Of a DNA stretch of 64,000 bases, positions 11,916 through 49,479 are shown one piece after another; position 1 is the stretch's first letter; every line of letters starts with the position of its first letter. The notes beneath the pieces are model-generated. The model made no database searches. It saw only the letters and a list, made by a program, of their open reading frames with translations, and had not been told where the DNA came from. A program made the translations under genes and the position numbers. Source of the DNA: an uncultured Phycisphaerales bacterium (GTDB lineage Bacteria; Planctomycetota; Phycisphaerae; Tepidisphaerales; Tepidisphaeraceae); assembly GCA_963755915.1 (NCBI GenBank), contig CAVWLP010000002.1, positions 4,032,001-4,096,000 on the forward strand, written 5' to 3'.

Positions 11916-12640
11916 ACGAATTTACGGTGCGGACGATCGATGTGAAGCGCAGCTACCCGATGGGGGGCGAAGTGTTGCATGCGCTGAAGGGGGTGAGTTT
12001 GTCGATCGGGCGGGGGGAATATATTTCGATCATGGGGCCGTCGGGGTCGGGGAAGAGTACCTTGTTCAATATGATTGGGGGGCTGGACAAGCCGTCGGAG
12101 GGGAAGGTTTATATTGACGAAGTGGATATCGCGCAGCTCGATAGCTATGAGCTGGCTTGGATGCGTTGCCATAAGATCGGGTACATTTTTCAGACGTTTA
12201 ATTTGATTCCGGTGATGACGGCGCTGGAGAACGTGATGATGCCGATGATTTTTGCGGGTCTGAATGCGGCGGATGCGCAGGACAAGGCGGCGGAAATTTT
12301 GAAGCGGGTGGAACTGGGGCATCGGCTGATGAACCGGCCGAGCGAGATGTCGGGGGGGCAGCAGCAGCGGGTGGCGATAGCGCGGGCGTTTGCGAATGAT
12401 CCGACCATTATTCTGGCGGATGAGCCGACGGGGAATTTGGATCTGCAGACGGGTAAGTTGATCATTGAGCTGCTGCGGCAACTGAACAAAGAACGGGGGG
12501 TGACGATCATTAGCGCGACGCACGATCATAAGATGCTGGCGGTGAGCGATCGGATTATGTGGATCAGCGATGGGAAGCTGGAGCGGATTCAGAATCGGGA
12601 GGATGTGAAGATTGAGGTGGGGAAGATCGAAGGGGCTTGA
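11912..12640 (+). CDS. ABC transporter ATP-binding protein (LolD/MacB type)
   Basis: Walker A GPSGSGKST, signature MSGGQQQRVAIARA, Walker B ILADEPTGNLD, H-loop ATHD. ATGA overlap with the permease. Confidence 0.95.
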   Translation: MNEFTVRTIDVKRSYPMGGEVLHALKGVSLSIGRGEYISIMGPSGSGKSTLFNMIGGLDKPSEGKVYIDEVDIAQLDSYELAWMRCHKIGYIFQTFNLIPVMTALENVMMPMIFAGLNAADAQDKAAEILKRVELGHRLMNRPSEMSGGQQQRVAIARAFANDPTIILADEPTGNLDLQTGKLIIELLRQLNKERGVTIISATHDHKMLAVSDRIMWISDGKLERIQNREDVKIEVGKIEGA

Positions 12641-12820
12641 TAGATTTTTATTGAGTGGGGCTTCCCGGGTTTGGGGAGAATAAAGAGGAAGATTTTTATC
12701 GGTTGCGGTTTGTGTGACGAGAAGAGGCGGTCACTCGTATAGGGGACCGCGGTTCCGCCGCGGGAGCACATGGCTGGCCGGGTGACGTTCGGGGCGACCT
12801 TGGGGTGTTGATCGGGGAGG

Positions 12821-13939
12821 TTACCGAAGTCCCTGCGTGAAGGCGGTGGAGAGGTTGGACGGCCAGGAGTAGGTGCCGGGTTTTAAAATGAGAAGGGGGG
12901 CGGTTCTGCCGGCGGGCAGGAGGGCGACGACGCCGGGGGCGATTGTGGATTTGACTTGGAGGGTGGACCACTGGAGACGCTCGATGACGGCGGAGGCGGT
13001 GGCGCCGCCTTCGATGATGAGAGTTTGGACTGGATGGGCGGAGAGGAGCGGGGGGATGAGATCGGCGATGGCGGTGCGGATTTGGTCGGTGCGGGCGGAT
13101 GTGACGGGGGAGCGGGCGGCGATGAAGGCGTAGCCGGTGGTGCGAAGTTGGAGAAGGGCCTTGGGGGCGTCGAAGGGGAGGTCGCAGATGACGGCGCCGG
13201 CGGCGAGTTGTGCGACAAACTCGCGGCTGGGGGTGGAGGCGCTGCCGAAGATGACGATTGCGTTGAGCGGTGATGCGAAGGGTTCGGTGGGGATGGGTTG
13301 GAGGGCGAGGGATTGGAGCAGGGCGGCGAAGAAATCTGCGCCGCCGGCGAAAAGGGTTTGGGAATCTCGTTGGGTGGACCAGTGGCGGATTTCGGATGCG
13401 GTGGCGGCGGCGCCGATGGTGATTCCGCGCGGCAGGGGGGGCTGACCTGGAGGGAGGCATTCGACATCGAGCGTTTGTGCGGGGTCGAGGAGGCGGCAGA
13501 CTTCGGATGTCGGTGGTGGGTTTTCGAGATCGACGGCCACCGGGGAATGGTGCAGGGGGATGTGGTCGATCAGGTATTGGCCATTTTCGATGATGCGGTT
13601 GCGAGAGGGATTCTGGGGGACGAGCAGGGCGCGAGGGAATTTAAGCGATGCGATGGCGGCGAGGAGTTCGGCGGCGACGCAGCCACGGAGCATGGAGTCG
13701 GTTTTTTTATAGATGAGGCTGAAATCGGCGGGATCGACGGTGTTGAGAATCGATTTGATCCGCTCGGCGGCCGCGTGCGGCGGGAGAAGGCGTGAGTCGG
13801 TGTCGAAGATGAGAACGTCGGCGGGGGTTTGGGGGAATTCGCCGCGGTGGATTATCGCGGAGAGGCCGTGGGCGGTTGCGAGGCCACCGATTTCAGCGGC
13901 GCCGGTGAGGTCGTCGGCGATGACAAGGAGGGGTTTCAA
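12821..13939 (-). CDS. Four-carbon acid sugar kinase family protein (DUF1537; DtnK/DenK-like)
   Basis: IADDLTGAAE, DTDSR, IYKKTDSMLRG, EGGATA, LKPG. Confidence 0.9.
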   Translation of the reverse strand: MKPLLVIADDLTGAAEIGGLATAHGLSAIIHRGEFPQTPADVLIFDTDSRLLPPHAAAERIKSILNTVDPADFSLIYKKTDSMLRGCVAAELLAAIASLKFPRALLVPQNPSRNRIIENGQYLIDHIPLHHSPVAVDLENPPPTSEVCRLLDPAQTLDVECLPPGQPPLPRGITIGAAATASEIRHWSTQRDSQTLFAGGADFFAALLQSLALQPIPTEPFASPLNAIVIFGSASTPSREFVAQLAAGAVICDLPFDAPKALLQLRTTGYAFIAARSPVTSARTDQIRTAIADLIPPLLSAHPVQTLIIEGGATASAVIERLQWSTLQVKSTIAPGVVALLPAGRTAPLLILKPGTYSWPSNLSTAFTQGLR

Positions 13940-14964
13940 CGGTTGGCGGCCATTTTCGCCGCATATTGAATGGCATCAAGGAGGCTGGCGTCGCTGGCGG
14001 TGCCTTTGCCGGCCTGGTCGAAGGCGGTGCCGTGATCGACAGAAACGCGGATGATGGGCAGGCCGAGGGAAACATTGACGCCGTTGACGCGTGCCCAGTG
14101 TGCGGCGGCGGGATCGAAGAGGAAGCCGCGGATTTTCGCGGGGATGTGGCCCTGGTCGTGATACATGGCGACGCAGATGTCGTAGAAGCCGGTGACGGCC
14201 TTGGCGAAAAATGTGTCGGGGGGCTCGGGGCCTTCGACTTTGATTCCGGCGGCCCGCGCGGCATCGATGGCGGGAATGATGTGCTCGCGTTCTTCGGTTC
14301 CGAAAAGGCCGCCGTCGCCGGCGTGGGGGTTGAGGCCGGCTACGCCGATGCGGGGGCTCTTGATGCCGAGGCGCAGACAGGCTTCGTGGGCGAGCTTGAT
14401 GACGCTGAGGACGCGCTCCTTGGTGATGGCGTTGCAGGCGTCGCGAAGCGAGACGTGGGTGGAGACGTGGACGACGCGAAAATTGTCGGCCGCGAGCATC
14501 ATGGTGAAATTTTGGGTCTTGGTGAAATGGGCGAAGATTTCGGTGTGGCCTGGAAAGTCGTGGCCGGCGAGGACGAGGGATTCTTTGTGAATCGGCGCGG
14601 TAACGGTGGCGTCGATATCGCCGGCGAGTGCGAGGGTGATCATCGTCTTGACGGCGCGGAAGGCGGCGTCGCCGGCCATCGCGGAAATTTCGCCGAGGCG
14701 AAGAGCGGATAAATCCGGGCCATCGATGGCGAGGACATCGATCACATCCGGTTTGAAATGGGTTTCGGATGGTTTGGCGATGGGGTTGATTGTTAGGTTG
14801 ACGCCCGCATAGGCGACAGCGTGTTTCATGATGGCGGGATCGCCGATGACGATCGGGCGGCAGAGCTGGTGCGTTGGCTGGCGCGAAAGAGCCATGGCGA
14901 TGATTTCCGGACCGATGCCGGCGGGATCGCCCATGCTAATTCCGATTTTGGGTGGTTGATTCAT
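13936..14964 (-). CDS. pdxA: PdxA-family dehydrogenase, probably PdxA2 (D-threonate/D-erythronate 4-phosphate dehydrogenase)
   Basis: MGDPAGIGPE, PGHTE, GLNPHAG, AMYHDQGHIP, RVSVDHGTAFD. Adjacent to a DUF1537 kinase. Confidence 0.9.
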   Translation of the reverse strand: MNQPPKIGISMGDPAGIGPEIIAMALSRQPTHQLCRPIVIGDPAIMKHAVAYAGVNLTINPIAKPSETHFKPDVIDVLAIDGPDLSALRLGEISAMAGDAAFRAVKTMITLALAGDIDATVTAPIHKESLVLAGHDFPGHTEIFAHFTKTQNFTMMLAADNFRVVHVSTHVSLRDACNAITKERVLSVIKLAHEACLRLGIKSPRIGVAGLNPHAGDGGLFGTEEREHIIPAIDAARAAGIKVEGPEPPDTFFAKAVTGFYDICVAMYHDQGHIPAKIRGFLFDPAAAHWARVNGVNVSLGLPIIRVSVDHGTAFDQAGKGTASDASLLDAIQYAAKMAANR

Positions 14965-15929
14965 TTCAAAGGGCGCTGTTTTGGTGGGTTTGTTTGGAGG
15001 GCATCGGCGGAATTTGAATTCCCCACGGCAGCGCCGTGGGCGTTCACAGAGGAAACTGGGCCGGGAGCGTCGCCGTTTTGGTTGGTTAGAGGGGGGAGCA
15101 TGGTGCGGCCGCAGAGGCCGCGCTCTTCGAGCATTGCTTTGAGGGAAGCTAATCCGAGGCCCAGGGTGCGGCATTTGAGATATCGAGAGCAGAGGGCATC
15201 CGTTTGATTTTGCAGCTCTTCGACGGCGTCCCAGCGCTCTTCGGAGGCGGCGTCGAACAGGGCGCGATAGAGTTCCGGGGCGAGATTGGCGCCGCTGGGA
15301 ACGATGCCCGCGCCGCCGCGTTTGAGGCCGAGGAGGAACTGGGGGCTGTTGCCGATGAGGATGGGAAAACCGTCGCGACCACCGGTGAGGCGGAGGAGAT
15401 CGACGACGCGGGTGGGGTCGCCGGCGGACTCTTTCAGGGCGACGATGTTTTCGTGGCGGCGGAGGCGGTCGATTGCGGTGAGGGGAATGGTTTGATGCGT
15501 GGTGGACGGGATGTTGTAGAGAACCAGGGGAAGGGGAAGATCGTCGGCGAGGCGGACAAAGTAAGATTCGATCTGCTCGTTGGTGAGGGGAAAGTAACTG
15601 GGCACATGGGCGACAAGGACGTCGGCGCCGATTTGGGCGTAGGCTTTGGCGGCTTCGAGGGATTCCTGAAAGCAGTTGGCGGCGATGCCGGCGTAGACGG
15701 TGGCTTTTTTGTCGGCGGCGCGAACCGTGAACTCGACCAGACGCCGTTTTTCGGTGGGATGGATTGAGGCGGACTCGCCGGTGGTACCGAGGGCGAAGAT
15801 TCCGTGGACACCGCCGTTCACGAGGTGGGCGACGAGACGGTCAACCGCGGGTTTGTCGATGCGGCCGTCGGTGGTGAAGGGGCTGACCATGGGAACGACC
15901 AGTCCGTGGAGGGAAAGAGAAACGGGCAT
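14961..15929 (-). CDS. DHDPS/NAL-family class I aldolase
   Basis: GTTGES, LYNIP, Schiff-base Lys in ALKES. The C-terminal tail runs through repeat A. Confidence 0.9.
   Translation of the reverse strand: MPVSLSLHGLVVPMVSPFTTDGRIDKPAVDRLVAHLVNGGVHGIFALGTTGESASIHPTEKRRLVEFTVRAADKKATVYAGIAANCFQESLEAAKAYAQIGADVLVAHVPSYFPLTNEQIESYFVRLADDLPLPLVLYNIPSTTHQTIPLTAIDRLRRHENIVALKESAGDPTRVVDLLRLTGGRDGFPILIGNSPQFLLGLKRGGAGIVPSGANLAPELYRALFDAASEERWDAVEELQNQTDALCSRYLKCRTLGLGLASLKAMLEERGLCGRTMLPPLTNQNGDAPGPVSSVNAHGAAVGNSNSADALQTNPPKQRPLK
15011..15049. repeat. Palindromic element A (CCCACGGC-N3-GCCGTGGG)
   Basis: 36/39 identical to 26940-26978; lies within the 3' end of the aldolase ORF. Confidence 0.85.
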
Positions 15930-17958
15930 TACAGTGGGCTCCTTGAAAAGTCATAGTGGGTTTTAGAGGTTGCTTCATTCTGCTCTTGCTCGGTGGCGAT
16001 GATGCGCTCGGCGATGGCTTCCATCGCTGAAGCGGCGGCCCAGGCGTTGTAGCTCCACCAGGTGCTGGAGGCGGAGTTGTCGTCATGGTATCGCTCGACG
16101 AGAAGTCCGTCGCTGGGGCAGGTGCGCTCGGAAAGAACGCCGTAGGCGCCGTAGCCGGTGACGCGGGGGTAGAGTTCCATCGTGTTCATAAGCCAGGCGA
16201 TGCCGTCTTCGGCACGGTTGGCGTGATAGGCGTCGGCGGTTTTTCGGGCGAGGTAGTGAAGGTCTTCGGTGACGACGGTGCTCATGGGATGGATGTGGGG
16301 GTTGGAGACGGAAGTGATCGAGCCGCCGCAGGAATTCCAATCGCTGGCTTTGAGGGGCGGCGATTGGGGGCGGGTGCGGAATCCGTAGCGCCAGAGGTAT
16401 TCGTAGTGGGCGCCGTCCTGGAGCATGTCGAGATAGAGCGGATCGGCGGTGTGCGTGTGCATGAGGCGGGCGGCGCGGATGAAGGCGAGGTTTCCTTCGG
16501 AATCGACGCTTTTGAAAGTGTCCATCGGCGATCCCCAGCAGGCGAGATTTGTCACGAAGTGACGGTAGTAGTGTAGTGCGCGGGCGGCGGCGTCGCGATA
16601 GCGGGTGTTGCTGGTGAGCTTCCAGGCGTGAATGAGCGCGGGGGCGAACCAGCAACCGGCGAAGCCGTCCCAGTCGACGACCTTTTTTTCTGAGCTGCTG
16701 AAGATGTAACCGAAGGCGCCGTCGTCGCGCTGTAATTCGACGGCGGTGTCGAGTACGCGGAGGGCGACGTCAACCCAGCGGCGGCAGTGGGGGGTGTCCG
16801 CGGGGAAGGGGTTTGAAGCGGCGCGAAGAAGATAATAGGCGGCGTGGGCGTTGGTGTAGGCGCAATGGTTGCCCTGGGTTTGAGGTAAGAAACCTGACCA
16901 CCAGCCGTTGATTTCGGATGCGTTCCAATCTTTGGGGCGGTTGTGGGTGAAGCGATTGAGAGTGGTGTCGTTGAGGAAGCCGGAGGACTCGTTGAAGCCG
17001 GTTGCGATCTCGTTGAAGATTTGGGCTGAATCTTTGGGAAGTTTTAGATCGGGGAAGAGGCGCTCGGCGAGCTGGAAGGGGTAGGCGAGGACGGTGCCTC
17101 CGGTCCAGCCGATTTCGACGATGGCGCGCCAGGGTTCGAGATTGAGGTCAACCGGGACGCGGCATTTTCGGTTGGTGTACTGCTGAAGCTCGGGGGAAAA
17201 GTTGATTTTTGCGAAGGCGTCGGCGAGGGCGCGCAGGGCGTCGCGAAACGAGCGGGAGAATTGCGGAATGCTGCGCATCTCCTCGTAGATGGCGCGGATG
17301 ATTCGGTGGGCGGCGAGGCGCCCGGCGCCGGGCACGGCGAATATTTTTCCTGTTGCACCGGCGCGATGGGTAAGATCGGCCGTGGCGGGGGCGAAATGCG
17401 TTTTTTCGACAAAGGTTAGCGGGTCATTTCCGTAGCCCAGGGCGACGCCGAAGCGATCGGGGAGGGCGGCGAAGAGGCCGTTGCGGATGAAGCCGTCGTC
17501 GGCGTTGCCGGAGGGGGAATAGGGGTCGATGGAAATTCCAACCGCTCCGCGCTGGCAGCAGAGGATTGAGACGGGATGAGAAGCGCGATCGGCGCGGAAT
17601 TCCCAGAGGGGGGCGCAATTTCGCTCGGCGGGGCGGGCGCCGGTGAGGCAGGGGAATTCGCCGGGACGGACGAAGGGGGCGTTGTTGTCGCCGTGGATGT
17701 TTCCGGGGATGAGATGGAAGAGGTCGGATTCATCCAGCAGCCGGGCTTGGAGGCGGATGCGGGTTTTGAAGTGGGATTTGAAGTTGAGGGAGTATTCCAA
17801 ATGGTCGTGTTCGCGATCGACGTGGAACCGGCCCTCGATGCCTTTGTGGTTGAAAACGTCTCCATCGGCGCCGGGCGCAGGGGGAGATCCATCCAACTTC
17901 CCTGCTGGAAGGCGGTGAGCGACAGTTGGAGCGCGAAATCGTTCAGGTGGACGACCAT
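15929..17958 (-). CDS. Hypothetical protein with a predicted C-terminal (alpha/alpha)6-barrel, glycoside-hydrolase-like; probable frameshift near 17880
   Basis: Helical repeats such as LQRDDGAF, WKLTSNTRYRDAAARA and HTADPLYLDMLQ. A plausible N-terminus MVVHLNDFALQLSL lies in another frame (ATG 17958). Confidence 0.6.
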
Positions 17959-18121
17959 ACAACTAATTGATAGCGGGATGAATCGCGACGCCCAAAAGTT
18001 AATCTGCGGGTGGCGAAGGGCCTAGAACAATCTAGCGTAATTGTTTTGCAGATTTGCGCACTTGCGGATATAGGGTAAGAAAGTGGGCCGATAAGGGCCG
18101 AAATCGCGGAAATAAGGGAAT

Positions 18122-18145
18122 GGTGGGCGAATTCGCCCACCCTAC
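18122..18145 (-). repeat. GTAG-type REP-like palindrome
   Basis: Minus strand reads GTAG-GGTGGGCGAATTCGCCCACC: GTAG followed by a perfect 20-bp palindrome. Confidence 0.7.
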
Positions 18146-18152
18146 GTTGGGT

Positions 18153-20503
18153 ATGCGAGAGCGTCTATCTCTGGACCACAATTGGAGGTTTGCGTTGGGG
18201 CATGCGGGTTGCGCGGCGCGGGACTTTGGGTTTGCGGCCAGCCGGTGCCTGGTCAAAGCGGGCGAGGCTCGTGGTGCCGCCGGACGGGAATTCGATGACT
18301 CGCGCTGGCGGCGGGTGGATGTGCCGCATGATTGGGCGATCGAGTTGCCGTTCGATTCTAAGGGAGATAAGGAGCTGGCGGAGCATGGATTTCGGGCTAT
18401 CGGGCCGGCGCATCCTGAGAATAGCGTGGGATGGTATCGCCGGAAATTCCCGGTTCCGAAAGGCGACCTCGGGCGGCGCATCGGGATTGAATTTGATGGA
18501 GTGTTTCGAAATAGCATTGTGTGGGTGAACGGATTCCGGCTGGGACGCCACGAGAGCGGATATACGAGCTTTCGATATGACGTGACGGATGTAGTGGAAT
18601 ATGGGGGCGAAAATGTTGTTGCCGTTCGCGTCGATGCGACCGACTGGGAGGGGTGGTGGTATGAGGGGGCGGGGATTTATCGTCATGTCTGGCTGGTTAA
18701 AACCGATCCGCTTCATGTTGCGCCGAGTGGAACTTTTGTGAGCAGCAAAATTGTCCGGGGGGCCGCGACGGTTACGGTGCGAACGCGGGTGGTTAACGAT
18801 GGGGAGGAGAGTGCAAAGTTCGACTTAACGTCGCGCATCCGCGATGCCGGCGGGGCGGTAGTCAAAGTCGGCAAAGGCCGGGGCGTACGGCTCGCGCCTG
18901 GGGACGGTGCGGAATTGGTGCATCAATTGCGAATCGATAATCCGCGGCTTTGGTCGTGCGATGCTCCGAATTTGTATGAACTGGAAAGCGTGATAAGCGA
19001 CGGGCGGCGGACGCGGGATTCATACGTGACGACGTTTGGGATTCGGACGCTGCGATGGGATGCCAAGCGCGGATTTTTCCTCAACGGGAAGGGGCTGAAG
19101 ATCAAAGGGACGTGCAATCACCAGCAATATGCCGGAGTGGGGATCGCCGTGCCGGACCGGGTTCATGAGCTGCGGGTTGAAAAGCTGAAGGAAATGGGGT
19201 CGAACGCGTATCGCTGCTCGCATTATGCGGCGACGCGGGAACTGCTCGATTTTTGCGATCGTAACGGGTTGCTGGTGATGGCGGAAAACCGCCTGGCGGG
19301 TGGGGGGCAGGAGGCGCTGGGGGAATTCGAGAGCATGATTCTGCGGGACCGAAATCATCCCAGCATTATTTTGTGGTCGATCGCAAACGAGGAGCACACG
19401 ATTCAGTGGTCGGCCAGGGGGGAGCGAATCGCCCGGGCGATGGTGAAATTGGCGCACCGCCTGGATCCGACGCGGAAGGTTACGGCGGCGATGCACGACA
19501 GGGGGCTTGGGGAGGGATTTGCGAATGTCGTGGACGTTCATGGATGGAACTACATCAACGTGGGGAATATTGAGGCGTTCCACCGCCGGCGGCCGGAGCA
19601 GCCGATCGTCGGCAGCGAAGAGGGAAGCACTGTATGCACGCGGGGGATTTATGCCGACGATCCGGGCGCGGTTATGTGAGCGCCTACGATGTTCGCGCTC
19701 CGAAATGGGGTTCGACGGCGGAGAACTGGTGGACGTTTGTGGCAAAACGTCCGTGGATCGCAGGGGGGTTCGTGTGGACGGGGTTCGATTATTTTGGCGA
19801 ACCGATTCCCTACCAATGGCCATGCACGGGCTCGCATTTCGGGCTGATGGACATGTGCGGATTTCCGAAAGACAATTATTATTACTTCAAGTCCTGGTGG
19901 AGCCGGGAGACGGTTTTGCATCTTTTTCCGCACTGGAACTGGCGAGGGAAAGAGAAGCGGATGATCGACGTACGGTGTTTCAGCAACTGTGATGAGGTGG
20001 AATTGCTACTCAATGGCACGAGTCTGGGAAGAAAGCGGATGGGGCGAAACTCTCATCTGGTTTGGCCCGTGGCTTATGCGCCTGGGGTGCTGGAGGCGCG
20101 AGGCTTTCGCGATGGAAAGCGTGTTGCCACGACGAGAAATGAGACCAGCGGTGCCGCGGCGAGGATCGTGCTTGAGGCTGATCGCCACGCGATTCGCGCC
20201 GATGGGGAGGATGTCGTGGCAGTGACGGCAGCAGCGGTCGATGCGAAGGGACGAACGGTTCCAACCGCTCAAAACCTGGTTCGATTTGATATTTCGGGGG
20301 CGGGGCGGTTGCTGGGCGTGGGCAATGGGGATCCGAGCAATCACGAATCGGTTAAGGAGCCACAGTGCCGATTGTTCAATGGCCGATGTATGGCATTGAT
20401 CGGCGCGGAAACGAAGGCGGGGAGGCTGCGCGTGCGCGGCCAGTCGGTCGGGCTGGAAGAATCGGTTGTGGAAGTGCAATTGGCGCCGGGCGCAGGAAAG
20501 TGA
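18153..20503 (+). CDS. GH2 beta-galactosidase-like protein, no signal peptide; frameshift near 19670
   Basis: VPHDW, WWYEGAGIYRHV, GTCNHQ, RNHPSIILWSIANEE, then GGFVWTGFDY and GVGNGDP in the second ORF (19634-20503). Confidence 0.9.
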
Positions 20504-20507
20504 TTCT

Positions 20508-21740
20508 ATGACGGCGAAGCCGAGTCGAACGCGCAAGGAAGGCCAGGCAAAGACAGGATTAACGGCGAAACTGCCGCGGCGGTTTCCAAGCGTCGCCCTG
20601 CTGGTGGAAACGACGCGGTCCTACGGGCGGGATTTGTTGCGCGGCATCAATGATTACGCGCAAATCCGGGGTCCGTGGCTGTTTCATTTGCCGAACGACA
20701 TACCGATTCTGGGGATACCACCGGCGGACGAATGGCGGGGCGACGGGATCATCGCGCAGCCGAGGCAGAACAAGGAATTCGTCCGGCAATTGGTTGAAGT
20801 GGGGATTCCGGTGGTGACGCTGTCGGGTCCGCCGGGGACGGGCGGGCTGCCGGCCGTGCGGGGAAATCACAACGCGGTGGCGGACCTGGCAATGGCGCAT
20901 TTCCGCGACCGGGGATTCGTGCGCTTTGCATATTGCGGAGCGCCGAACGAATGGGATTGGCCCCCGACGGGGAAGAATTTTCAGCGTCTGGCCGAAGAGG
21001 TGGGGATGCAATGCGAGATTTACCATCCACGGGAAGATCCCGGGAGCCATACGCTGCAAATCGCTTCGCTTGGCGAGTGGCTGAAATCGCTGCGGAAGCC
21101 GGTGGGGCTGCTGGCGTCGAACGATAACCGGGCGCGGGAAGTTTTGGACGCGTGCAGATCGGAGGGGATTTTCGTGCCCGAAGAGGTGGCGGTGCTGGGC
21201 GTGAATGACGACGAATTGATTTGCGAGCTTGCCAACCCGCCGCTGTCGAGCGTGATCCATAATGCGCGGCGGATTGGGTACGAGGCGGCGGCGATGCTCG
21301 ACCAGCTTATGTCTGGCAAGACGGTGACGAACGATGTGATTATGGATCCGCTGGGCGTACATGCGAGAAAATCGACCGATTTGCTGGCGATCGAAGATCC
21401 GGAAGTCGCCAAAGCGGTGCGGTTTATCCGCGAGCATGCTTGCGACGGGATTCGCGTTGAGAATGTTCTGGAAGAAGTGGCGATGTCGCGGCGATCGTTT
21501 GAGAAGCGGTTCCGGCAGGCGCTGGGACGGCCGCCGCACATGGAGATTCGGCGGGTGCAGTTGGAAAGGGTGAGGCAACTGCTGGTGGGAAGCGATTTTA
21601 AGCTGCAAAAAATCGCGGAAGCGGCGGGATTTTCGTCGGCGCAATATCTGGCCGGGCTTTTTCATCAAACGATGGGGATGACGCCGGGGGCGTGGCGGCA
21701 GGCGGGGCGGTCGAGTGGGTCGAAGAGCGGCGAGAAATAA
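20508..21740 (+). CDS. XylR-type transcriptional regulator (periplasmic-binding-protein-like sensor + AraC HTH)
   Basis: VALLVETTRSYGRDLLRGI, VPEEVAVLGVNDD, PPLSSV, RKSTD, C-terminal AraC double HTH. Confidence 0.9.
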   Translation: MTAKPSRTRKEGQAKTGLTAKLPRRFPSVALLVETTRSYGRDLLRGINDYAQIRGPWLFHLPNDIPILGIPPADEWRGDGIIAQPRQNKEFVRQLVEVGIPVVTLSGPPGTGGLPAVRGNHNAVADLAMAHFRDRGFVRFAYCGAPNEWDWPPTGKNFQRLAEEVGMQCEIYHPREDPGSHTLQIASLGEWLKSLRKPVGLLASNDNRAREVLDACRSEGIFVPEEVAVLGVNDDELICELANPPLSSVIHNARRIGYEAAAMLDQLMSGKTVTNDVIMDPLGVHARKSTDLLAIEDPEVAKAVRFIREHACDGIRVENVLEEVAMSRRSFEKRFRQALGRPPHMEIRRVQLERVRQLLVGSDFKLQKIAEAAGFSSAQYLAGLFHQTMGMTPGAWRQAGRSSGSKSGEK

Positions 21741-21766: not shown

Positions 21767-23794
21767 ATGCTAGATCTGGATGAATCCCCCGTATCGATTG
21801 AAGAGCAGAAACCCGCCGTCACGCTGCGCAGCGTGTTGCTGGGGTTGATCGCGGTGGTGGTGGTATGCGCGGTCACCCCGTTCAACGATTACGTGCTTTC
21901 GAATACCAGCCTGAGCGCGGGGTTTATGCCGCTGGGGATGGTGCTGATTCTGTTTGTGCTGGTGGTGGGGATAAACGGGACGCTGCACCGCTGGTTTCCG
22001 CGGCGGGCGCTGGGTACGGGAGAACTGGCGATCATCGTGCTGATGACGCTGGTCGCGTGCAGTTTGCCGAATTGGGGAATGATGCGGTTTCTGGTGCCGA
22101 TGCCGGTGACGGCGTTTCACATGGGTGCGCGGGACGAGCTTTTCTGGAACGCGTTTACGGGGATGAATCTGCCGAAATGGTTGTTTCCGGTGGCGGACAT
22201 CCAAAGCGGGCGTACGAGTCCGATCGTTCAGTGGTTCTTTAATCGGGTGCCGGCGGGGTCGGCGATTCCGTATCGGGCGTGGTTGATTCCGCTGGCGGGG
22301 TGGGGTGTGTTTGCGGGGGCGATGATGTTGACGCTGGGATCGCTGGCGCGGCTGGTGCTCGACCAGTGGGCCCTGAATGAACGATTGCCGTTTCCGATCG
22401 CCCAGGTGCAGACGGCGCTGATCGAGGCTCCCGAACCGGGATTTGCGCTCAACAGGCTGTTTCGCGATCCCGTCCTCTGGATCGGGCTGTGCGGGGTGCT
22501 CGGGATTCAACTGCTTTCGATCCTCAACACTTATTTTCCCAGGCATGTTCCGGTGGTGTCGCTGAAGTTTGACCTCAGCGGGATTCTGTCGGAAGAGCCG
22601 TTTATTTATTTACGGCCGCGGCTGAAAAAATCGTTCCTGTCGTTCACGGTGGTGGGAATGACGTATTTTATCCGGTCGCGGGCGGCGTTCAGCTTGTGGG
22701 CGACGTTTGTGGTGCTGAACCTCATCGATATGGAACAGGGGATGAGACAGGCGGATATTTCGCCGGCGGCTTACGCGGACCAGCATCTGGGCGCGTGCGT
22801 GGCGTTCGTTCTGGGGATCGCATGGGTGGGCAGGCATTACTGGCTGCGCGTGCTGCGAAATGCGTTTGGCGGCGGGGGTAATCGGGGGGGTGATCGAAGC
22901 GGGCGGGCTTCGTTCTGGCTGGCGTGTATTGGGATTGCAACGATGCTGGGGTGGTTGTCGATTGTGGGGACGCATTTTTTTATGGCAGTGATGATCGTTG
23001 GTTTTATTGTCATGGGGCAATTGGTTGTGGCCCGGGTGGTGGCGGAGACGGGGATGACGTTTTTCCGGACCAGCGCGGTATCGTCGCAGATTTACACGAA
23101 TACGCCGGCCAAGTGGTATAACACGAACGACATTTATTTTGGGGGCGTTTTCACGCTGCTTGGGGCTTATGCGACGCGCGAGGGGCTGACGACGTTGGCG
23201 ACGACCGGTCTTGTGGTCTGCAAGAACGCGGGCGTGGGGGTGCGAAATCCACGGCGGATTGGGTGGGTGATTGCGCTGGCGCTGGGGGTGGGGTTTGCGG
23301 TGGCGGCTTGTACCACGCTCTGGTGCCAGTATTCGTATCCGACGCCGGCGGCGCAAACGGCGATACCGCAGCGGAATTATTTTGGGGCCGAGGCGTTTCC
23401 GCAGCGGGAGATTGGGGCGGGGGTCGATCAGTTCGGCAAGGGGCGTTTCGCGCCGAAGGAATATAATTCGCCGCTGCATATGGGGATTGGGTTTGGGGTG
23501 ACGGCGCTGCTGGAGGGGGCATCACTGCGATGGGCGAGTTGGCCGTTTTTGCCGGTGGGGTTTGTGGCGAGCTATGGGACGCCCATTGGGGATGCTTGGT
23601 TCAGCATTTTCGTGGGTTGGCTGGCGCAGTTGCTGATCGTGCGTTTCGGCGGTGCCCGCTTCTATCAACGGGCGAAGCCATTTTTCATTGGACTTATTTT
23701 TGGGGAGGGTTTGGCGGCGGGAATCTGGATCATCGTGAATGCTTTGATTGTGCTCAACGGCGGGGCGTCGCAAAGCGTGAAGTTTATTATGTAG
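21767..23794 (+). CDS. DUF6785/DUF6784-like polytopic membrane protein (putative transporter)
   Basis: 675 aa with many TM segments. Contains QWALNERLPFP, ARVVAETG, WPFLPVG and YQRAKPFFIGLIFGE, motifs recalled for this family. Confidence 0.7.
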   Translation: MLDLDESPVSIEEQKPAVTLRSVLLGLIAVVVVCAVTPFNDYVLSNTSLSAGFMPLGMVLILFVLVVGINGTLHRWFPRRALGTGELAIIVLMTLVACSLPNWGMMRFLVPMPVTAFHMGARDELFWNAFTGMNLPKWLFPVADIQSGRTSPIVQWFFNRVPAGSAIPYRAWLIPLAGWGVFAGAMMLTLGSLARLVLDQWALNERLPFPIAQVQTALIEAPEPGFALNRLFRDPVLWIGLCGVLGIQLLSILNTYFPRHVPVVSLKFDLSGILSEEPFIYLRPRLKKSFLSFTVVGMTYFIRSRAAFSLWATFVVLNLIDMEQGMRQADISPAAYADQHLGACVAFVLGIAWVGRHYWLRVLRNAFGGGGNRGGDRSGRASFWLACIGIATMLGWLSIVGTHFFMAVMIVGFIVMGQLVVARVVAETGMTFFRTSAVSSQIYTNTPAKWYNTNDIYFGGVFTLLGAYATREGLTTLATTGLVVCKNAGVGVRNPRRIGWVIALALGVGFAVAACTTLWCQYSYPTPAAQTAIPQRNYFGAEAFPQREIGAGVDQFGKGRFAPKEYNSPLHMGIGFGVTALLEGASLRWASWPFLPVGFVASYGTPIGDAWFSIFVGWLAQLLIVRFGGARFYQRAKPFFIGLIFGEGLAAGIWIIVNALIVLNGGASQSVKFIM

Positions 23795-24776
23795 AGCGAA
23801 GGTCGGCGCTGGTGGCGAGGGCAATGGCGCGGCCGCGATTTCCGACCGCGCAGTAGAAGTGATAGACAATCCCCTTCCAATGGACGAGCCAGGGTTTATG
23901 AGCGAAGGTGGCGTCCCACGGCTCCGACGGCTCGACGAGATGGGGGCCATGCCATCGGGTCCAGTTCACCAGATCGTGGGAGCAGGCGAACGTGTCGAAA
24001 GCTTTGGGCTTCCAGACATGGCCGAAATAGAACATGACCCAGAGGTCGCCGATGCGGACGACCTGGGGATCGCCGGAGATTCCGCGTGGGCCGTTGTCGA
24101 TGACGGGGCCGGGGCCGTGGCGCTTCCAGTGGGTCATGTCGTCGGAGAGGGCCATGCCGATGCGCTCCGTGCCGGGTCCCTGCTGTTTTGCGTTGTAGAA
24201 CATCACGAAAGGGGAGCCCAGGGATTTGGAGGGGTCCTGGATGATGTTGCTTTTGTAGAGGGTGGCTTTTTCGAAGGGGCGGGCGTCGGGATCGCCGGGG
24301 CCGAGGACGGGGTTATTGCTTAAGCGCGTGCATTCCTGCGCCGCCGAGGGATCTTGCGTCCAGGCGATGCCGATGGAGAGGGGATCGGGTTCATAGCCTG
24401 GCAGAGCGCCGCCGATGTAACTGAGCCAATATCTGCCGTCGAATTGGTGTAGAGCATGGTCGCCGTCCCATTGAACATCGGCCAGGGCGATGCCGCCGTC
24501 GGCCTGGCAATGGTCCCAGCCGTCCTCGCGGAAGGAGAGGATTTTTCCCAGCGGCTGCCAATTCAGGAGATTGTCGCTGACGGCAAGGTGGGTCTCGTAG
24601 CCGATTTTGTCGGTGTTGGCGACGTAAACCATAAACCAGCGGTTTTCAAAACGAAAAACGCTGGGGCAGTCGTAGAGGGATCCTTGCGGGGGCTGGAGGA
24701 CGATTCCATATTTGAACGGGGTTTTTGTTTGATCGTATATGACCTGCATCAAATCGGGGGCGACTTCGTTTTGCAT
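23787..24776 (-). CDS. Five-bladed beta-propeller glycosidase, GH137-like (beta-L-arabinofuranosidase)
   Basis: YDQTKTPFKYG, DCPSVF, GYETHLAVSDNLLNW, FAHKP, YHFYCAV resemble the recalled GH137 domain of BT0996. Confidence 0.7.
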   Translation of the reverse strand: MQNEVAPDLMQVIYDQTKTPFKYGIVLQPPQGSLYDCPSVFRFENRWFMVYVANTDKIGYETHLAVSDNLLNWQPLGKILSFREDGWDHCQADGGIALADVQWDGDHALHQFDGRYWLSYIGGALPGYEPDPLSIGIAWTQDPSAAQECTRLSNNPVLGPGDPDARPFEKATLYKSNIIQDPSKSLGSPFVMFYNAKQQGPGTERIGMALSDDMTHWKRHGPGPVIDNGPRGISGDPQVVRIGDLWVMFYFGHVWKPKAFDTFACSHDLVNWTRWHGPHLVEPSEPWDATFAHKPWLVHWKGIVYHFYCAVGNRGRAIALATSADLRST

Positions 24777-26979: not shown

Positions 26980-28725
26980 TCATGGTGACCCACGATTGCC
27001 AGAGGCTTGATCGGGGCCAGCTGGAATGATGCTGAGGTTGGAAATACGGAAGGAGAATCTGCGGGCGGGGTGGTCGGTACCGGGTGGAACGGGTTTGGCG
27101 CCGCCGATGCCGCGCCAGGTCCCGGTGCGGAAGGAAAGGCGGTGCAGGGGGGCGGGGGATTCGGCGAAGGGGGCATCGGGCAGGATGGTGGCGCCGTTGA
27201 TTGAAACCGAGAAACGGCCGCGATCGGCGTCGGCCTCGATTTGAAAATGGGCGAACTTTGCGCCGAGGAGTGAGGGGTTGATGTTTCCGTCATTGGCGAT
27301 TCTGAGCCGGACCAATCGTCGGGAACCAAACTTGCTGAGCAGATCGATTTCGAGGGCGCCGTCGTCAGTGCGATCAATTTCAAGATCGAAAGTGACGGTG
27401 ATTCTTGCCGACTCGGCAAACACGCGGGTCGCCTGGGCGTAGTCGTAAGGATCTTCATTCGTCAGTCGCAGGACGCCTGCGGCGATTTCGACGGAGGACC
27501 AGTTTGGCCGGTAGATATTCCAGCCGGGAATAAATGGGCCCGGGGGGAAGCTGCTGAAATCGTCGTTGACGGTTGCCGTTTCCTGGGAGTTTAGGGGCAG
27601 AGGAACCCGGCTTACCCAGATGTCCTCCTTATTCATGCTGTAGGTCAGCCACATCGCGTTGTCATTGCGCGAGCCGTCGTCGGCCCAGTGTGAAATGCCG
27701 CGGACGTATTGGGGGCCGATGCTGCGGTGCAGGCCGGCGTAGCGCTGGATGGGGAGTTCGCCCTGGATGATGCGCATGTCGGCGAAGTTGACGCCGTCGG
27801 AGCTGGTGACGGCTACAAGGGGGTATCGGCTCGATTTCGACGGGTTAAAGACCAACACGTAGCGGCCGTCGCGGGTGCGCTGGGACCAGACTTTGGCTTT
27901 GCCGGTGATGAGCGACGCCGGGACGCTGGGCTGCGACCAGGTTTTTCCGTCGTCCGTGGAGGCCGTGACCCAGCCCATCTTGCTGATGCCGACCCAGGCG
28001 TTGTCGGCGCGGCGGAAGAAGGAGAAGGCTTTGCCGCAGACCCATTTTTCGTTTTCGCCCGGGACCGCGCCACCGGGCCAGGCGGCGGGGTCGTGCCACT
28101 TCATGCGGCGTGGGCCTAGCAAGCGGCCGCGATCCTGTTGTTCTAAGAACATGCGGTCGGCCAGAAGTTCCCGGCAGGCTTGTTTGAAGGCGTCGTCGCT
28201 GGAGGTGTCGAAGCGCGGGGCGGGCAGTTTGATGGACTGCGAGGCCTGGAGGGTGAAGACGTCGGCGAGGGAATGATCGGGCCGGATTTCGCGGACGACC
28301 AGGGCGCTTTTGCGGTCTTCGCTGGTTTCCTGCTGGTCCGTGCGCAGGCCGGCGATTGCCAGCATGCGGTCGTTGGATGCGCGGTAGAAATACATGCGCA
28401 GGCAGGTCGAGATGCCCTGGGGAAAAAGTTCCACTGGGTCGGTCCAGCCGGAGCCGTCCGTGGAGGTGCTATATAGTTCACGCGAAGGCCAGACATCTTC
28501 ATCGCGCTGGCAGGAGTTCCACCCGACGTAGAGGCGGCCTTTCCAGCAGGCCATGTCGACGTGATGGTGATAGGTCCAGCCGAGTTGGTCGGTTAGGTCG
28601 GGAACGTCGGAGGAGGCGCGGAAGATCTGGAAGGAATGGACGCCGGGCATTGGGGGAAGGCCGCCGTCGGGGAGGGTTGGATTGAGGAGCGATTGCTCGC
28701 GGCCGTGAATCTGCAGAACGTCCAT
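26980..28725 (-). CDS. Sialidase-fold beta-propeller, GH143-like (DHA hydrolase)
   Basis: Asp-boxes STDGSGW, STDDGKTW and SSDGVNF. DGGLPPMPGVH...GWTYHH, GPQYVRGI and TYSMNKEDIWVS resemble the recalled N-terminal domain of BT1020. Confidence 0.7.
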   Translation of the reverse strand: MDVLQIHGREQSLLNPTLPDGGLPPMPGVHSFQIFRASSDVPDLTDQLGWTYHHHVDMACWKGRLYVGWNSCQRDEDVWPSRELYSTSTDGSGWTDPVELFPQGISTCLRMYFYRASNDRMLAIAGLRTDQQETSEDRKSALVVREIRPDHSLADVFTLQASQSIKLPAPRFDTSSDDAFKQACRELLADRMFLEQQDRGRLLGPRRMKWHDPAAWPGGAVPGENEKWVCGKAFSFFRRADNAWVGISKMGWVTASTDDGKTWSQPSVPASLITGKAKVWSQRTRDGRYVLVFNPSKSSRYPLVAVTSSDGVNFADMRIIQGELPIQRYAGLHRSIGPQYVRGISHWADDGSRNDNAMWLTYSMNKEDIWVSRVPLPLNSQETATVNDDFSSFPPGPFIPGWNIYRPNWSSVEIAAGVLRLTNEDPYDYAQATRVFAESARITVTFDLEIDRTDDGALEIDLLSKFGSRRLVRLRIANDGNINPSLLGAKFAHFQIEADADRGRFSVSINGATILPDAPFAESPAPLHRLSFRTGTWRGIGGAKPVPPGTDHPARRFSFRISNLSIIPAGPDQASGNRGSP

Positions 28726-40399: not shown

Positions 40400-40424
40400 T
40401 GTCCCCGGCTGCGCCGAGTCGGCA

Positions 40425-41966: not shown

Positions 41967-42475
41967 GTTGTTCCTCTGTGGAGTGCGTTACTTGCCTTCT
42001 AAATGCGTGAAGCGAAACAGGCAGGGTATGCCTCGACGCTGCCAGCGGTGACCGAACACGCGACACCAAGCTTACTGACAATTATGACACAAATTCTGAC
42101 CCAATTCGATTGAAATTTGGAGGCCGGGAAAAATTGCAATCAACGATTCCACGGCGTCGATGTGCGCAGATGTGAAATTAGCGGGGATTTTCCGTCATCG
42201 TGCGGCCCAGGTTGCGGTAGGCGCTGAATTTTTGGCGCAAAAAACAGAACGGAATGGTTGCGGCGCCGGATTAAAACTCCGCTTGTTTGTGCAAAAAATG
42301 CGTGCGGAGCGTTAGTCCGAAGGCAGTTCGCAATACTCGCCAGCAACGCGTCGGCCGTCGCGGCGATGTACGGGTGTATAATAGAATCGCCATTTTCGCT
42401 TGACTGGGGGCGCGCCAATGCCGGTCAATGATGTCGCACTGCGCGACCACGCTGGTTGCTGGTAAAATCTTTCGC

Positions 42476-49470: not shown

Positions 49471-49479
49471 GGCAGCAAA

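Follow-up and report, generated by a model that had tools for sequence, protein, structure and literature searches.

Results

The window, a stretch of 64,000 nucleotides from the genome of an uncultured Phycisphaerales bacterium, encodes an RG-II degradome (GH95, GH127, a GH143-like protein, DUF6298, GH138, GH140, GH78 and GH2) together with both apiose routes. Within it, four genes form an operon on the minus strand. The first (15929-17962) encodes a 677-aa protein of an unnamed family and is followed by genes for a DHDPS-family aldolase (14961-15929), a PdxA-family NAD-dependent oxidative decarboxylase of the PdxA2 type (13936-14964) and, in last position, a divergent DUF1537 acid-sugar kinase (12821-13939). 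The stop codon of the 677-aa ORF overlaps the aldolase start (TAATG at 15931-15927, with AAGGAG 10 nt upstream), the aldolase/PdxA junction reads ATGA at 14964-14961 in the sequence, and the PdxA/kinase junction is TTGA at 13939-13936, a 4-bp overlap. The four operon genes are translationally coupled. Pfam matches and the overlapping start and stop codons thus bear out the original prediction that the aldolase, pdxA and a four-carbon acid kinase are coupled. The window holds many split genes and the assembly is otherwise rich in frame breaks, whereas this trio, hereafter the module, is intact.

The aldolase matches PF00701 over residues 7-285 (181.9 bits against a Pfam cut-off of 22.1), which places it in the DHDPS/NAL superfamily. 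Residues K166, Y138 and G48-T49-T50-G51-E52 are invariant across 25 aligned orthologues, and we take K166, Y138 and the GTTGE motif to be equivalent to K161, Y133 and T44 of DapA. The protein scores below the NCBIfam cut-offs for the DapA equivalog TIGR00674 (157.4 vs 206.15 bits), the NanA models (109.6 and 82.2 vs 281 and 382 bits), KdgD (67.4 vs 374 bits) and the archaeal KDG aldolase Arch_KDGaldase (81 vs 390 bits), and its best solved relatives, unnamed DHDPS-like proteins, reach only 130 bits. It carries a 34-aa C-terminal extension compared with most homologues, the orthologues being about 285 aa long, and other DHDPS paralogues are encoded elsewhere in the genome. It is a class I enzyme of a distinct subfamily, and we propose that it acts as a DHA (3-deoxy-D-lyxo-2-heptulosarate) aldolase.

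The PdxA gene was called as a longer ORF (13936-15174, minus strand) that matches PF04166 with 352 bits from residue 103 onward in Pfam; because relatives align from the ATG at 14964 (Met71 of the long ORF), this is the true start. In NCBIfam the protein passes the generic pdxA model TIGR00557 (350 bits, cut-off 290) and scores below the D-threonate 4-phosphate dehydrogenase equivalog NF002891 (327 vs 583 bits). The genome has a second PdxA elsewhere (C2:2229573-2230262) and a PdxJ (C2:4589240-4589951), and a separate second PdxA is found in 17 of 18 module genomes. In a phylogenetic tree, a branch with UFboot 99 and SH-aLRT 95 separates 19 module PdxAs and the PdxA2 of an E. coli accessory island (see below) from 13 second copies and the E. 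coli housekeeping PdxA; the E. coli rows are long branches. The second copies follow taxonomy, whereas the module PdxAs cross phyla. By PDB bit scores, the second PdxA of the genome is as PdxA2-like as the module copy. The tree suggests that the module PdxAs form a PdxA2 group apart from the housekeeping copies, and the proposed reaction is that of a 4-phospho-D-threonate dehydrogenase yielding DHAP and CO2.

The kinase, a proposed D-threonate 4-kinase, matches the Pfam domain SBD_N with 100 bits (profile positions 1-166 of 230) and NBD_C partially with 36.9 bits (positions 84-160 of 168). Its best NCBIfam model is DtnK (NF047819), as is always the case among the module kinases, but the match covers the N-terminal 160 residues only and fails the equivalog cut-off (100.8 vs 450 bits); the two other DUF1537 models score lower (OtnK 51.8 bits, OiaK 19.8 bits). 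Although only 24.6% identical to E. coli DtnK, the protein aligns end to end with the L003 kinase (residues 1-372), and such alignment with relatives indicates that it is whole and free of frameshifts. It evolves faster than its partners, with 84% amino-acid identity to L003 compared with 92-96% for the others. Against the nearest relative, dN/dS is 0.08 for the aldolase, 0.13 for PdxA and 0.33 for the kinase, and the operon genes that remain are under purifying selection (dN/dS 0.08-0.33).

The 677-aa protein has no Pfam or NCBIfam match, even at E<=10, and 389 cluster representatives at E<=0.001. Its AlphaFold model (pLDDT 89.9) comprises an N-terminal beta-sandwich and an (alpha/alpha)6 barrel. 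The top Foldseek match is the PL27 lyase 5nok/5no8 (TM 0.36-0.45), and residues 232-662 gave, in VIA, Z-scores of 18-19 with GH76 and of 16-17 with AGE-type epimerases; together the fold searches recover only a generic (alpha/alpha)6 barrel. On the sequence side, the comparison with GH142/GH127-type beta-L-arabinofuranosidases gave weak matches to the GH127 catalytic domain in 4 of 35 homologues. Of the 26 module loci, 9 have a homologue encoded upstream of the module. The protein probably acts before the module, as a glycoside hydrolase, a lyase or a sugar isomerase.

We compared 80 loci that encode an aldolase homologue. The aldolase, PdxA and kinase occur together in 26 of them: all 25 loci with an aldolase of at least 38% identity, plus L075 (Eubacteriales). 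PdxA or the kinase accompanies none of the more distant aldolases (0/54). Order and strand are the same in the 25 loci, which belong to Planctomycetota and Bacteroidota, and L075 keeps the three genes together in a different order. The arrangement is far beyond chance: 25 other loci have these three genes side by side in this order, and a 26th also holds all three. The trio is a conserved module across several bacterial phyla (Planctomycetota, Bacteroidota and Bacillota, with lineages in Phycisphaerae, Pirellulales, Bacteroidota and Eubacteriales). Among its carriers is a cultured species, Fontivita pretiosa (L004). An SSF symporter gene follows the kinase in 7 of the 26 loci, and the Bacteroidota loci have LacI and SusC/D alongside.

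In 21 of the 26 module loci, and also in G299 and G677, a gene for an Fe-alcohol dehydrogenase (Fe-ADH) lies directly upstream of the aldolase. It is absent from the other 5 loci, as well as from the operon of the window and that of its nearest relative, and no orthologue was found in G401, G418, G424 or G425. The L020, L026 and L027 lineages keep the module without it, and the L017 locus is cut, with a 62%-identical Fe-ADH copy at a contig end of the same genome. The present genome yielded no orthologue either; its only Fe-ADH is 40% identical and has MMPL and two-component genes as neighbours. The operon has lost its dedicated Fe-ADH gene both here and in the nearest relative, so the reduction proposed below must rely in this genome on another reductase. 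The earlier remark that the operon lacks a reductase therefore holds for this genome, but a conserved reductase exists in its relatives, where the Fe-ADH supplies the reductase co-occurrence that had been sought. The Gfo/Idh/MocA protein at 53640, named earlier as one candidate for this role, is never linked to the module: none of the 80 loci encodes a homologue (E<=1e-10), and the gene lies near apiose-pathway genes.

The GH143-like gene (26980-28725, minus strand) lies 11 kb from the module. In keeping with the GH143-like assignment already made, its product carries the BT_1020-type beta-propeller (PF24067, 123.4 bits in two stretches) together with a sialidase-like CBM (PF22585, 80.4 bits) and without a GH142 domain. 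It is presumed to release DHA from side chain D of RG-II. A second GH143-like copy lies at G000:C2:299247-299813. GH143 is present in 25 of 26 module genomes as against 5 of 400 and 10 of 300 background genomes, so the co-occurrence on which the original prediction staked itself was found. The only module genomes in the two background samples, G299 and G677, are both GH143-positive, and the L075 cluster that holds the module includes the GH143 gene as well. Because the RG-II-specific GH138 is nearly as frequent (23 of 26 module genomes), this co-occurrence ties the module to RG-II and not to DHA specifically. The module is missing from most of the GH143-positive sample genomes, 4 of 5 in one sample and 9 of 10 in the other; the genome of B. 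thetaiotaomicron encodes GH143 and no DUF1537 protein.

Discussion

RG-II is among the most complex plant glycans, and DHA is one of the rare acidic sugars of the plant wall. The glycosidases that degrade RG-II have been mapped in Bacteroides; to our knowledge, the intracellular fate of its rare acidic sugars (DHA, Kdo and aceric acid) has not been mapped, and our full-text literature searches found no described route of DHA catabolism. Gene anatomy and conservation are observed directly in our analysis, and the reactions of the following route are all ones that we infer. A GH143-type hydrolase would free DHA, and uptake would follow. The aldolase would then form a Schiff base at C2 and cleave the C3-C4 bond, giving pyruvate and D-threuronate (2,3-dihydroxy-4-oxobutanoate). 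An NAD(P)H-dependent aldehyde reductase, the Fe-ADH in most relatives, would reduce D-threuronate to D-threonate, which the DUF1537 kinase would convert to 4-phospho-D-threonate and the PdxA2-type dehydrogenase would in turn oxidise and decarboxylate to DHAP and CO2. In sum, DHA and ATP would yield pyruvate, DHAP and CO2 in a redox-neutral process. The predicted passage from a threo-configured C4 uronate to D-threonate is sound on paper: the D-lyxo configuration sets C5 and C6 as threo, and the reduced fragment, numbered from its carboxyl, is D-threonate.

The original prediction of this route survived all computational tests (conservation, GH143, Fe-ADH and PdxA2 grouping), although the GH143 link is not specific to DHA and the kinase and PdxA score below equivalog cut-offs. 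On the strength of these sequence comparisons, we consider it rather likely that the module degrades DHA through pyruvate and D-threuronate, D-threonate and 4-phospho-D-threonate to DHAP and CO2. A broader reading would see here the missing pathway of DHA catabolism, with D-threuronate as a new metabolite, a DHA aldolase that would be the first of its kind and an Fe-ADH dedicated to threuronate reduction, all leading into DtnK/PdxA2. Gene transfer would have spread the pathway between RG-II degraders belonging to three or more phyla, the model degrader B. thetaiotaomicron not among them. It would also have been assembled a second time, around an aldolase of another lineage, in Eubacteriales and in E. 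coli, where a fifth of the complete genomes carry it. To this joint reading we give an even chance.

The breadth of the RG-II association leaves room for another acidic sugar of RG-II or pectin, such as aceric acid, Kdo or a different keto-deoxy acid, with a hydroxy-acid other than D-threonate as the substrate of the kinase and PdxA; aceric acid, for example, could undergo C1 reduction, phosphorylation and PdxA-type oxidative decarboxylation to a 5-deoxypentulose phosphate. GH138 accompanies the module in nearly as many genomes as GH143, the kinase and PdxA are divergent, and we know of no assignment for aceric acid catabolism or for a Kdo aldolase gene, which we count on this side. We nonetheless hold this to be unlikely, since the carboxylate-binding GTTGE motif, the Tyr and the Lys are invariant in the module aldolases. 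The known enzymes of the DHDPS family work on pyruvate-derived 2-keto acids; aceric acid lacks the 2-keto-3-deoxy structure. Cleavage of Kdo would give D-arabinose and hence leave no role for an acid-sugar kinase or PdxA2. Moreover, the RefSeq record of the E. coli analogue gives the two downstream enzymes as D-threonate kinase and D-threonate 4-phosphate dehydrogenase, and the module PdxAs group with the latter. It is very improbable that the kinase and PdxA consume free D-threonate or D-erythronate, for instance from plant ascorbate breakdown, beside an unrelated aldolase and Fe-ADH. DUF1537 kinase and PdxA2 do form a self-sufficient known pathway, and some module loci have no Fe-ADH, but trio order and strand are kept in 25 loci, the genes stay together in L075, the distant-aldolase loci have no partners, and the start and stop codons of the operon overlap. 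In addition, E. coli and Eubacteriales combine these partners with an aldolase of a second lineage, and the module is closely tied to genomes with GH143 and RG-II degradation.

The missing Fe-ADH, the faster evolution of the kinase and the many split genes of the window would also fit a pathway that is decaying in the present genome, the three genes being relics left after loss of the reductase. All three genes are, however, intact despite the frame breaks of the assembly, their dN/dS is low against a relative with the same Fe-ADH-less arrangement, and three other lineages keep the module without Fe-ADH; we judge decay highly unlikely. That PdxA and the kinase serve vitamin B6 (PLP) synthesis or 4-hydroxy-L-threonine salvage is scarcely credible, although PdxA2 is able to carry out the reaction of PdxA, and 4-hydroxythreonine can be phosphorylated by DUF1537 proteins. 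Passages of PMC9997740 and PMC12928451 cite Thiaville et al. 2016 for such B6-related activities of PdxA2 and DUF1537 proteins, and a passage of PMC12928451 interprets the E. coli pair as B6-related. Against this, the genome has a separate PdxA and PdxJ, the second PdxAs of module genomes follow taxonomy while the module copies cross phyla, and a role in B6 metabolism would not explain why the pair is linked with an aldolase, an Fe-ADH, transporters and glycoside hydrolases.

If the broader reading is correct, free or glycosidic DHA would be a cross-fed nutrient in the gut. B. thetaiotaomicron is without the route, and DHA may therefore be a public good for cross-feeders. The module would represent a complete, redox-balanced and directly testable pathway, giving specific functions to four proteins whose present annotation is generic or, in the case of PdxA, likely wrong, and accounting for the D-threonate kinase/dehydrogenase pair in pectin loci.

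Comparison with known systems

D-threonate catabolism by the DUF1537 kinase DtnK and the D-threonate 4-phosphate dehydrogenase PdxA2 was reportedly described by Zhang et al. 2016 in PNAS. The module has the same two families adjacent and coupled, the proposed products (DHAP and CO2) are the same, DtnK is the best model for its kinase, and its PdxAs group with E. coli PdxA2. However, D-threonate would be an internal intermediate of the module, made by aldolase and reductase, and not an imported nutrient; the module kinase and PdxA are divergent clades below equivalog cut-offs, and they lie among RG-II glycoside hydrolases and not threonate transporters. A passage of PMC9997740 also cites Zhang et al. 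2016.

The E. coli accessory island lies between nagE and glnS (CFT073 740007-747692) and occurs in 1049 of the 5426 complete genomes of the species; it is GR6 of PMC12928451, where a passage lists it among uncharacterised features. It encodes a DHDPS-family protein, an Fe-ADH, dtnK, PdxA2 (D-threonate 4-phosphate dehydrogenase), a sialidase-family protein, a YhcH/NanQ-like protein and a regulator. The island thus shares all four enzyme types with the module, and its PdxA2 groups with the module PdxAs, but its aldolase comes from a different lineage (identity of 29% to the module aldolase here and 41% to that of L075), its kinase is a canonical dtnK product, its sialidase-family hydrolase is BNR_2 and not GH143, and it consists of two divergent operons with no RG-II degradome. 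We regard it as an independent analogue of the module. Sialic acid catabolism likewise employs a DHDPS-superfamily lyase, NanA, whose substrate is a nonulosonic-type 2-keto-3-deoxy acid that a sialidase-fold hydrolase has released; the transporter is of the SSF type or another kind. An SSF symporter adjoins the module in 7 loci, yet the module aldolase scores far below NanA cut-offs, and the downstream enzymes are completely different.

The D-apiose pathways, said to have been described by Carter et al. 2018, also degrade a rare RG-II sugar via a DUF1537 kinase (OiaK), and their genes lie in the same window (57923-60404 and 47633-49470). A passage of bioRxiv 10.64898/2026.03.13.711244 names these pathways. 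They differ from the module in kinase clade, the OiaK model giving 334 bits on 57923-59005 compared with 19.8 on the module kinase, and in the RuBisCO-like or transketolase chemistry of the apiose route. In the D-glucarate/galactarate pathway, the aldolase GarL, the tartronate-semialdehyde reductase GarR and the glycerate kinase GarK act in succession. The shared logic is cleavage of a 2-keto-3-deoxy diacid into pyruvate and an acid semialdehyde, followed by reduction and phosphorylation. The proposed route starts one carbon longer, from a C7 acid, and would pass through a C4 semialdehyde; its aldolase is DHDPS-type and not HpcH-type, its reductase Fe-ADH-type and its kinase a DUF1537 protein, and it needs an extra decarboxylating dehydrogenase, so that the likeness is one of logic and not of membership. 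The module would encode a C7 version of the glucarate/galactarate route that continues into the D-threonate route already known.

Results

The aldolase, PdxA and kinase genes named in the original prediction are confirmed on the minus strand by their Pfam domains and coordinates. The DHDPS-family aldolase (14961-15929; PF00701, 181.9 bits) is followed by a PdxA-family dehydrogenase (13936-14964; PF04166, 352 bits) and a DUF1537 kinase (12821-13939; SBD_N, 100 bits; NBD_C, partial, 36.9 bits), and the operon is headed by a fourth minus-strand gene, a 677-aa ORF (15929-17962) whose stop overlaps the aldolase start. The PdxA gene was placed inside a longer ORF (13936-15174) because the Pfam match begins at residue 103 of that ORF and relatives align from Met71. 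Stop and start codons overlap at all three junctions of the sequence, as TAATG (15931-15927, with AAGGAG upstream), ATGA (14964-14961) and TTGA (13939-13936). The overlap between aldolase stop and PdxA start arises from a 34-aa C-terminal tail on the aldolase (14961-15065, minus strand), which is absent from the nearest relative (L003, 288 aa) and most orthologues (~285 aa); a metagenome protein 95% identical to the aldolase has the same length, 322 aa. The weak kinase Pfam match reflects divergence rather than damage, as the protein aligns over its whole length with the kinases of relatives. Comparison with L003 indicates purifying selection (dN/dS of 0.08 for the aldolase, 0.13 for PdxA and 0.33 for the kinase), and a promoter and terminator scan of 12500-18200 gave nothing above shuffled-sequence level.

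A profile built from 25 aldolase orthologues identified 80 loci in one-genome-per-species contigs, against which the window's proteins were run by tblastn. At all 25 loci with an aldolase at least 38% identical (L003-L027), PdxA and kinase genes lie directly downstream with their order kept. Both are also present, in a different gene order, at an Eubacteriales locus (L075; aldolase 31% identical), and tblastn found neither at the remaining 54 of the 80 aldolase-homologue loci. The trio is a conserved module, carried by Phycisphaerae, one Pirellulales MAG, Bacteroidota (Odoribacter and Prolixibacteraceae) and one Eubacteriales MAG. Within 10 kb, many of these loci hold homologues of the window's RG-II genes, pectate lyase, pectinesterase, GH28, GH78, GH106 and apiose transketolase. 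An SSF sodium/solute symporter gene lies 3′ of the kinase in 7 of the 26 loci and likewise in G299, a module genome from a background sample, and the Bacteroidota loci have LacI upstream and SusC/SusD downstream. The L075 locus reads regulator, kinase, iron-containing alcohol dehydrogenase (Fe-ADH), aldolase, PdxA, ABC transporter, MGH1-like hydrolase, beta-lactamase-fold protein and GH143 (263 bits).

Several other genes were observed at or near these loci. In G299, a sodium/bile-acid symporter (SBF) gene lies between the module Fe-ADH and an apiose-type split transketolase (L122, G299:C35:6186-7334), and in Fontivita pretiosa a TerC gene lies near the module (L004:2450-3637). At seven further loci (L161 and L162, in the Bacteroidia genomes G691 and G599 respectively, L028-L031 and L067), a distinct DHDPS paralogue with 33-37% identity has an SSF symporter as its partner (29-41% identity to that of the module; ~38% in L161 and L162), and no PdxA or kinase matches were found there. 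At L161 and L162, Fe-ADH, PdxA and kinase were all unseen within the 1.5-kb flanks. This pair probably serves a different keto-deoxy sugar acid.

The original prediction tied the trio to GH143, the presumed hydrolase releasing 3-deoxy-D-lyxo-2-heptulosarate (DHA) from RG-II side chain D, and this association holds across genomes. The GH143 family (PF24067) is present in 25 of the 26 module genomes, compared with 5/400 and 10/300 background genomes, counts that overstate independence because the module genomes are related to one another. The sole GH143-negative module genome is the 3.1-Mb Pirellulales MAG. The first background set, an even sample of the phylum, contains one genome with the module aldolase (1/400; G299), and the second, from the class of the Odoribacter carrier, also contains one (1/300; G677, with Fe-ADH, PdxA and kinase adjacent to the aldolase). 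Both are GH143-positive. Two more genomes of the second set, G599 and G691, carry a 35%-identical aldolase paralogue beside an SSF symporter, with no Fe-ADH, PdxA or kinase found in the 1.5-kb flanks, and are GH143-negative. The module is thus nested within GH143 genomes. The reverse nesting fails, as 4 of 5 and 9 of 10 GH143 genomes in the two samples are without the module. As a control, Bacteroides thetaiotaomicron has GH143 and no DUF1537 domain. GH138 is found in 23/26 module genomes, linking the module to RG-II as a whole; co-occurrence was consequently rejected as a means of telling DHA from other RG-II sugars, as it gives no discrimination.

The window's genome encodes a second PdxA and a PdxJ elsewhere. 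Exactly two PdxA genes occur in 17 of 18 module genomes, and the Eubacteriales genome has the module copy alone. In a phylogenetic tree, a branch with SH-aLRT 99 separates 19 module PdxAs from three phyla from 13 second copies whose placement follows taxonomy. When the enzymes of E. coli CFT073 were included, the PdxA2 of a genomic island (L164), annotated as D-threonate 4-phosphate dehydrogenase, was placed within the module clade (99/95) and the housekeeping PdxA outside it, both E. coli rows being long branches. For the counterpart of this island PdxA2 in strain BEN2908, a published study gives 75% identity to PdxA2 P58718 (PMC12928451). Bit scores against PDB entries were set aside in favour of the tree, as the genome's second PdxA also ranks PdxA2 first. 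NCBIfam scans of three module kinases (window, L021 and L075) each gave D-threonate kinase as the best model (101-160 bits), with the 3-oxo-tetronate kinase model scoring lower and both under cut-off; the OiaK model matches only the window's module kinase among the three (19.8 bits, under cut-off). The aldolase fails the dapA, nanA, KdgD and KDG-aldolase NCBIfam models, and a search for a close solved relative found none. In a 25-orthologue alignment its Schiff-base lysine, tyrosine and GTTGE motif are conserved. The genome encodes at least four further DHDPS paralogues.

The reductase that the original prediction noted as missing from the operon was found in relatives, as Pfam on neighbours and tblastn place an Fe-ADH gene immediately 5′ of the aldolase in 21 of the 26 module loci. 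It also accompanies the module in G299 and G677, and the genome of L017, a cut locus, has a 62%-identical copy at a contig end. The best NCBIfam models for this Fe-ADH are ErcA and lactaldehyde reductase, all under cut-off. The gene is missing from the window, L003 (aldolase 96% identical), L020, L026 and L027, with no orthologue found in their genomes (matches at most 40%). Because L013 and L016 have the order 677-aa gene, Fe-ADH, aldolase, PdxA, kinase, the arrangement in the window looks like a clean loss of Fe-ADH. The only Fe-ADH of the window's genome (C3:310313-311308) was rejected as the lost reductase, being 40% identical compared with 56-74% among orthologues and neighboured by MMPL, two-component and transposase genes. 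The Gfo/Idh/MocA protein originally put forward as one candidate reductase (53640-54722; best NCBIfam model iolG, 95.8 bits) was also rejected, as none of the 80 loci contains a homologue of it at E<=1e-10; it lies near apiose genes.

The 677-aa protein received no family assignment from Pfam or NCBIfam and belongs to a modest family of 389 representatives. Its predicted structure (pLDDT 89.9) combines a beta-sandwich with an (alpha/alpha)6 barrel. Over the full length, a PL27 lyase matches best (TM 0.36-0.45), and the barrel alone matches GH76 (Z 18-19) and AGE-type epimerases (Z 16-17). The fold searches thus returned a generic barrel and a low-TM lyase, and BT1020 was not among the matches listed. 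A protein atlas hints at GH127, as do 4 of 35 homologues. As a candidate separate GH142, the protein had no tblastn match within the 1.5-kb flanks of 30 GH143 loci. Homologues precede the module in 9/26 loci, all Phycisphaerae. The probable substrate of the protein is a glycoside containing DHA, or the sugar itself. The L003 copy of the gene is frameshifted.

As an RG-II degradation locus, the window contains a GH137-like fragment (23787-24776), a GH143-like BT_1020 propeller (26980-28725), GH95 (28729-31113), GH127 (31122-32819), DUF6298 (33064-36183), GH138 alpha-galacturonidase in two pieces (37684-40435) and a GH140-type apiosidase (40425-41966), together with GH78 and several GH2 genes. 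The window also appears to carry two D-apiose routes, one comprising a split transketolase and FGGY kinase (47633-53643; split transketolase 47633-49470) and the other OiaK and the RuBisCO-like OiaX (57923-60404; OiaX 453.6 bits against a cut-off of 700 in NCBIfam), with an Asp/Glu-racemase-fold protein in the same region (57255-60404). The FGGY kinase (residues 5-444) shares one 1387-aa plus-strand ORF (49480-53643) with a complete GH78 rhamnosidase (504-1335). The two are separate genes in relatives (L013 FGGY, 551 aa; G299 GH78, 1150 aa), and the joined ORF could represent a true fusion or an artefact of read-through. A DUF6785/DUF6784 membrane protein (21767-23794, plus strand) adjoins a XylR/AraC-type regulator (20466-21740, plus strand); the pair recurs by the module in L003 and L008, and the membrane protein may be the transporter of the window's lineage, which is without the SSF symporter.

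The genome assembly comprises 6.6 Mb in 3 contigs (81% complete, 8% contaminated). Genes split between frames include two GH2, GH138, OiaK (N-terminus in another frame) and PdxJ (18054-20503, 37684-40435, 42428-45242, 57923-59211 and G000:C2:4589240-4589951); these could reflect assembly indels or be pseudogenes. The aldolase/PdxA/kinase operon is intact amid them. GC skew falls near-linearly across the window, from +0.46 to -0.24, and does not track gene orientation; on the 5-Mb contig C2 it ranges from -0.37 to +0.30 in 20-kb windows (SD 0.13).

Discussion

Our analysis leans towards reading the module as a DHA breakdown route. DHA is HOOC-CO-CH2-(CHOH)3-COOH, and cleavage between C3 and C4 by a pyruvate-type class I aldolase would yield pyruvate and OHC-CHOH-CHOH-COOH. 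Because the D-lyxo configuration places the C5 hydroxyl left and the C6 hydroxyl right in Fischer projection, this C4 fragment would be D-threuronate, and reduction of its aldehyde would give an acid that, numbered from the carboxyl, is D-threonate. The DtnK/PdxA2 route, reportedly described by Zhang and colleagues in 2016, converts D-threonate to DHAP and CO2; entry of the reduced fragment into this route would give the same products, and the NAD(P)H spent by the reductase would be regenerated by PdxA2. The original prediction therefore stands in part: its route idea fits the genomics, namely the conserved module and the GH143 link, and its candidate reductase, the Gfo/Idh/MocA protein, was wrong.

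The module could instead act on another acidic RG-II sugar, as the GH138 association is with RG-II overall. We consider this unlikely, since cleavage of Kdo would yield arabinose, and aceric acid lacks the structure of a 2-keto-3-deoxy acid. Among the RG-II sugars considered, DHA alone would give a four-carbon acid by aldolase cleavage and reduction, which favours the DHA route. A recent preprint describes side chain D as L-Araf-beta-1,5-Dha on the backbone, with BT1020 acting on side chain D (bioRxiv 10.64898/2026.03.13.711244). No DHA catabolic route was found among the literature matches listed.

An independent, analogous gene set occurs in E. coli, in an accessory island between nagE and glnS (CFT073 740007-747692). 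On one strand the CFT073 island encodes YhcH-family, sialidase-family (BNR_2), TerC, DHDPS-family and Fe-ADH proteins, and on the other dtnK, D-threonate 4-phosphate dehydrogenase and a DeoR regulator. The island occurs in 1049 of 5426 complete E. coli genomes, ATCC 25922 and ABU 83972 among them, and PMC12928451 lists it as uncharacterised and reads its PdxA2/DUF1537 pair as B6-related. The island aldolase is 29% identical to that of the window and 41% identical to that of L075, which indicates that two aldolase lineages have become associated with one set of three partners and with a sialidase-fold hydrolase. The proposed DHA route is a new pathway variant made of known enzyme families.
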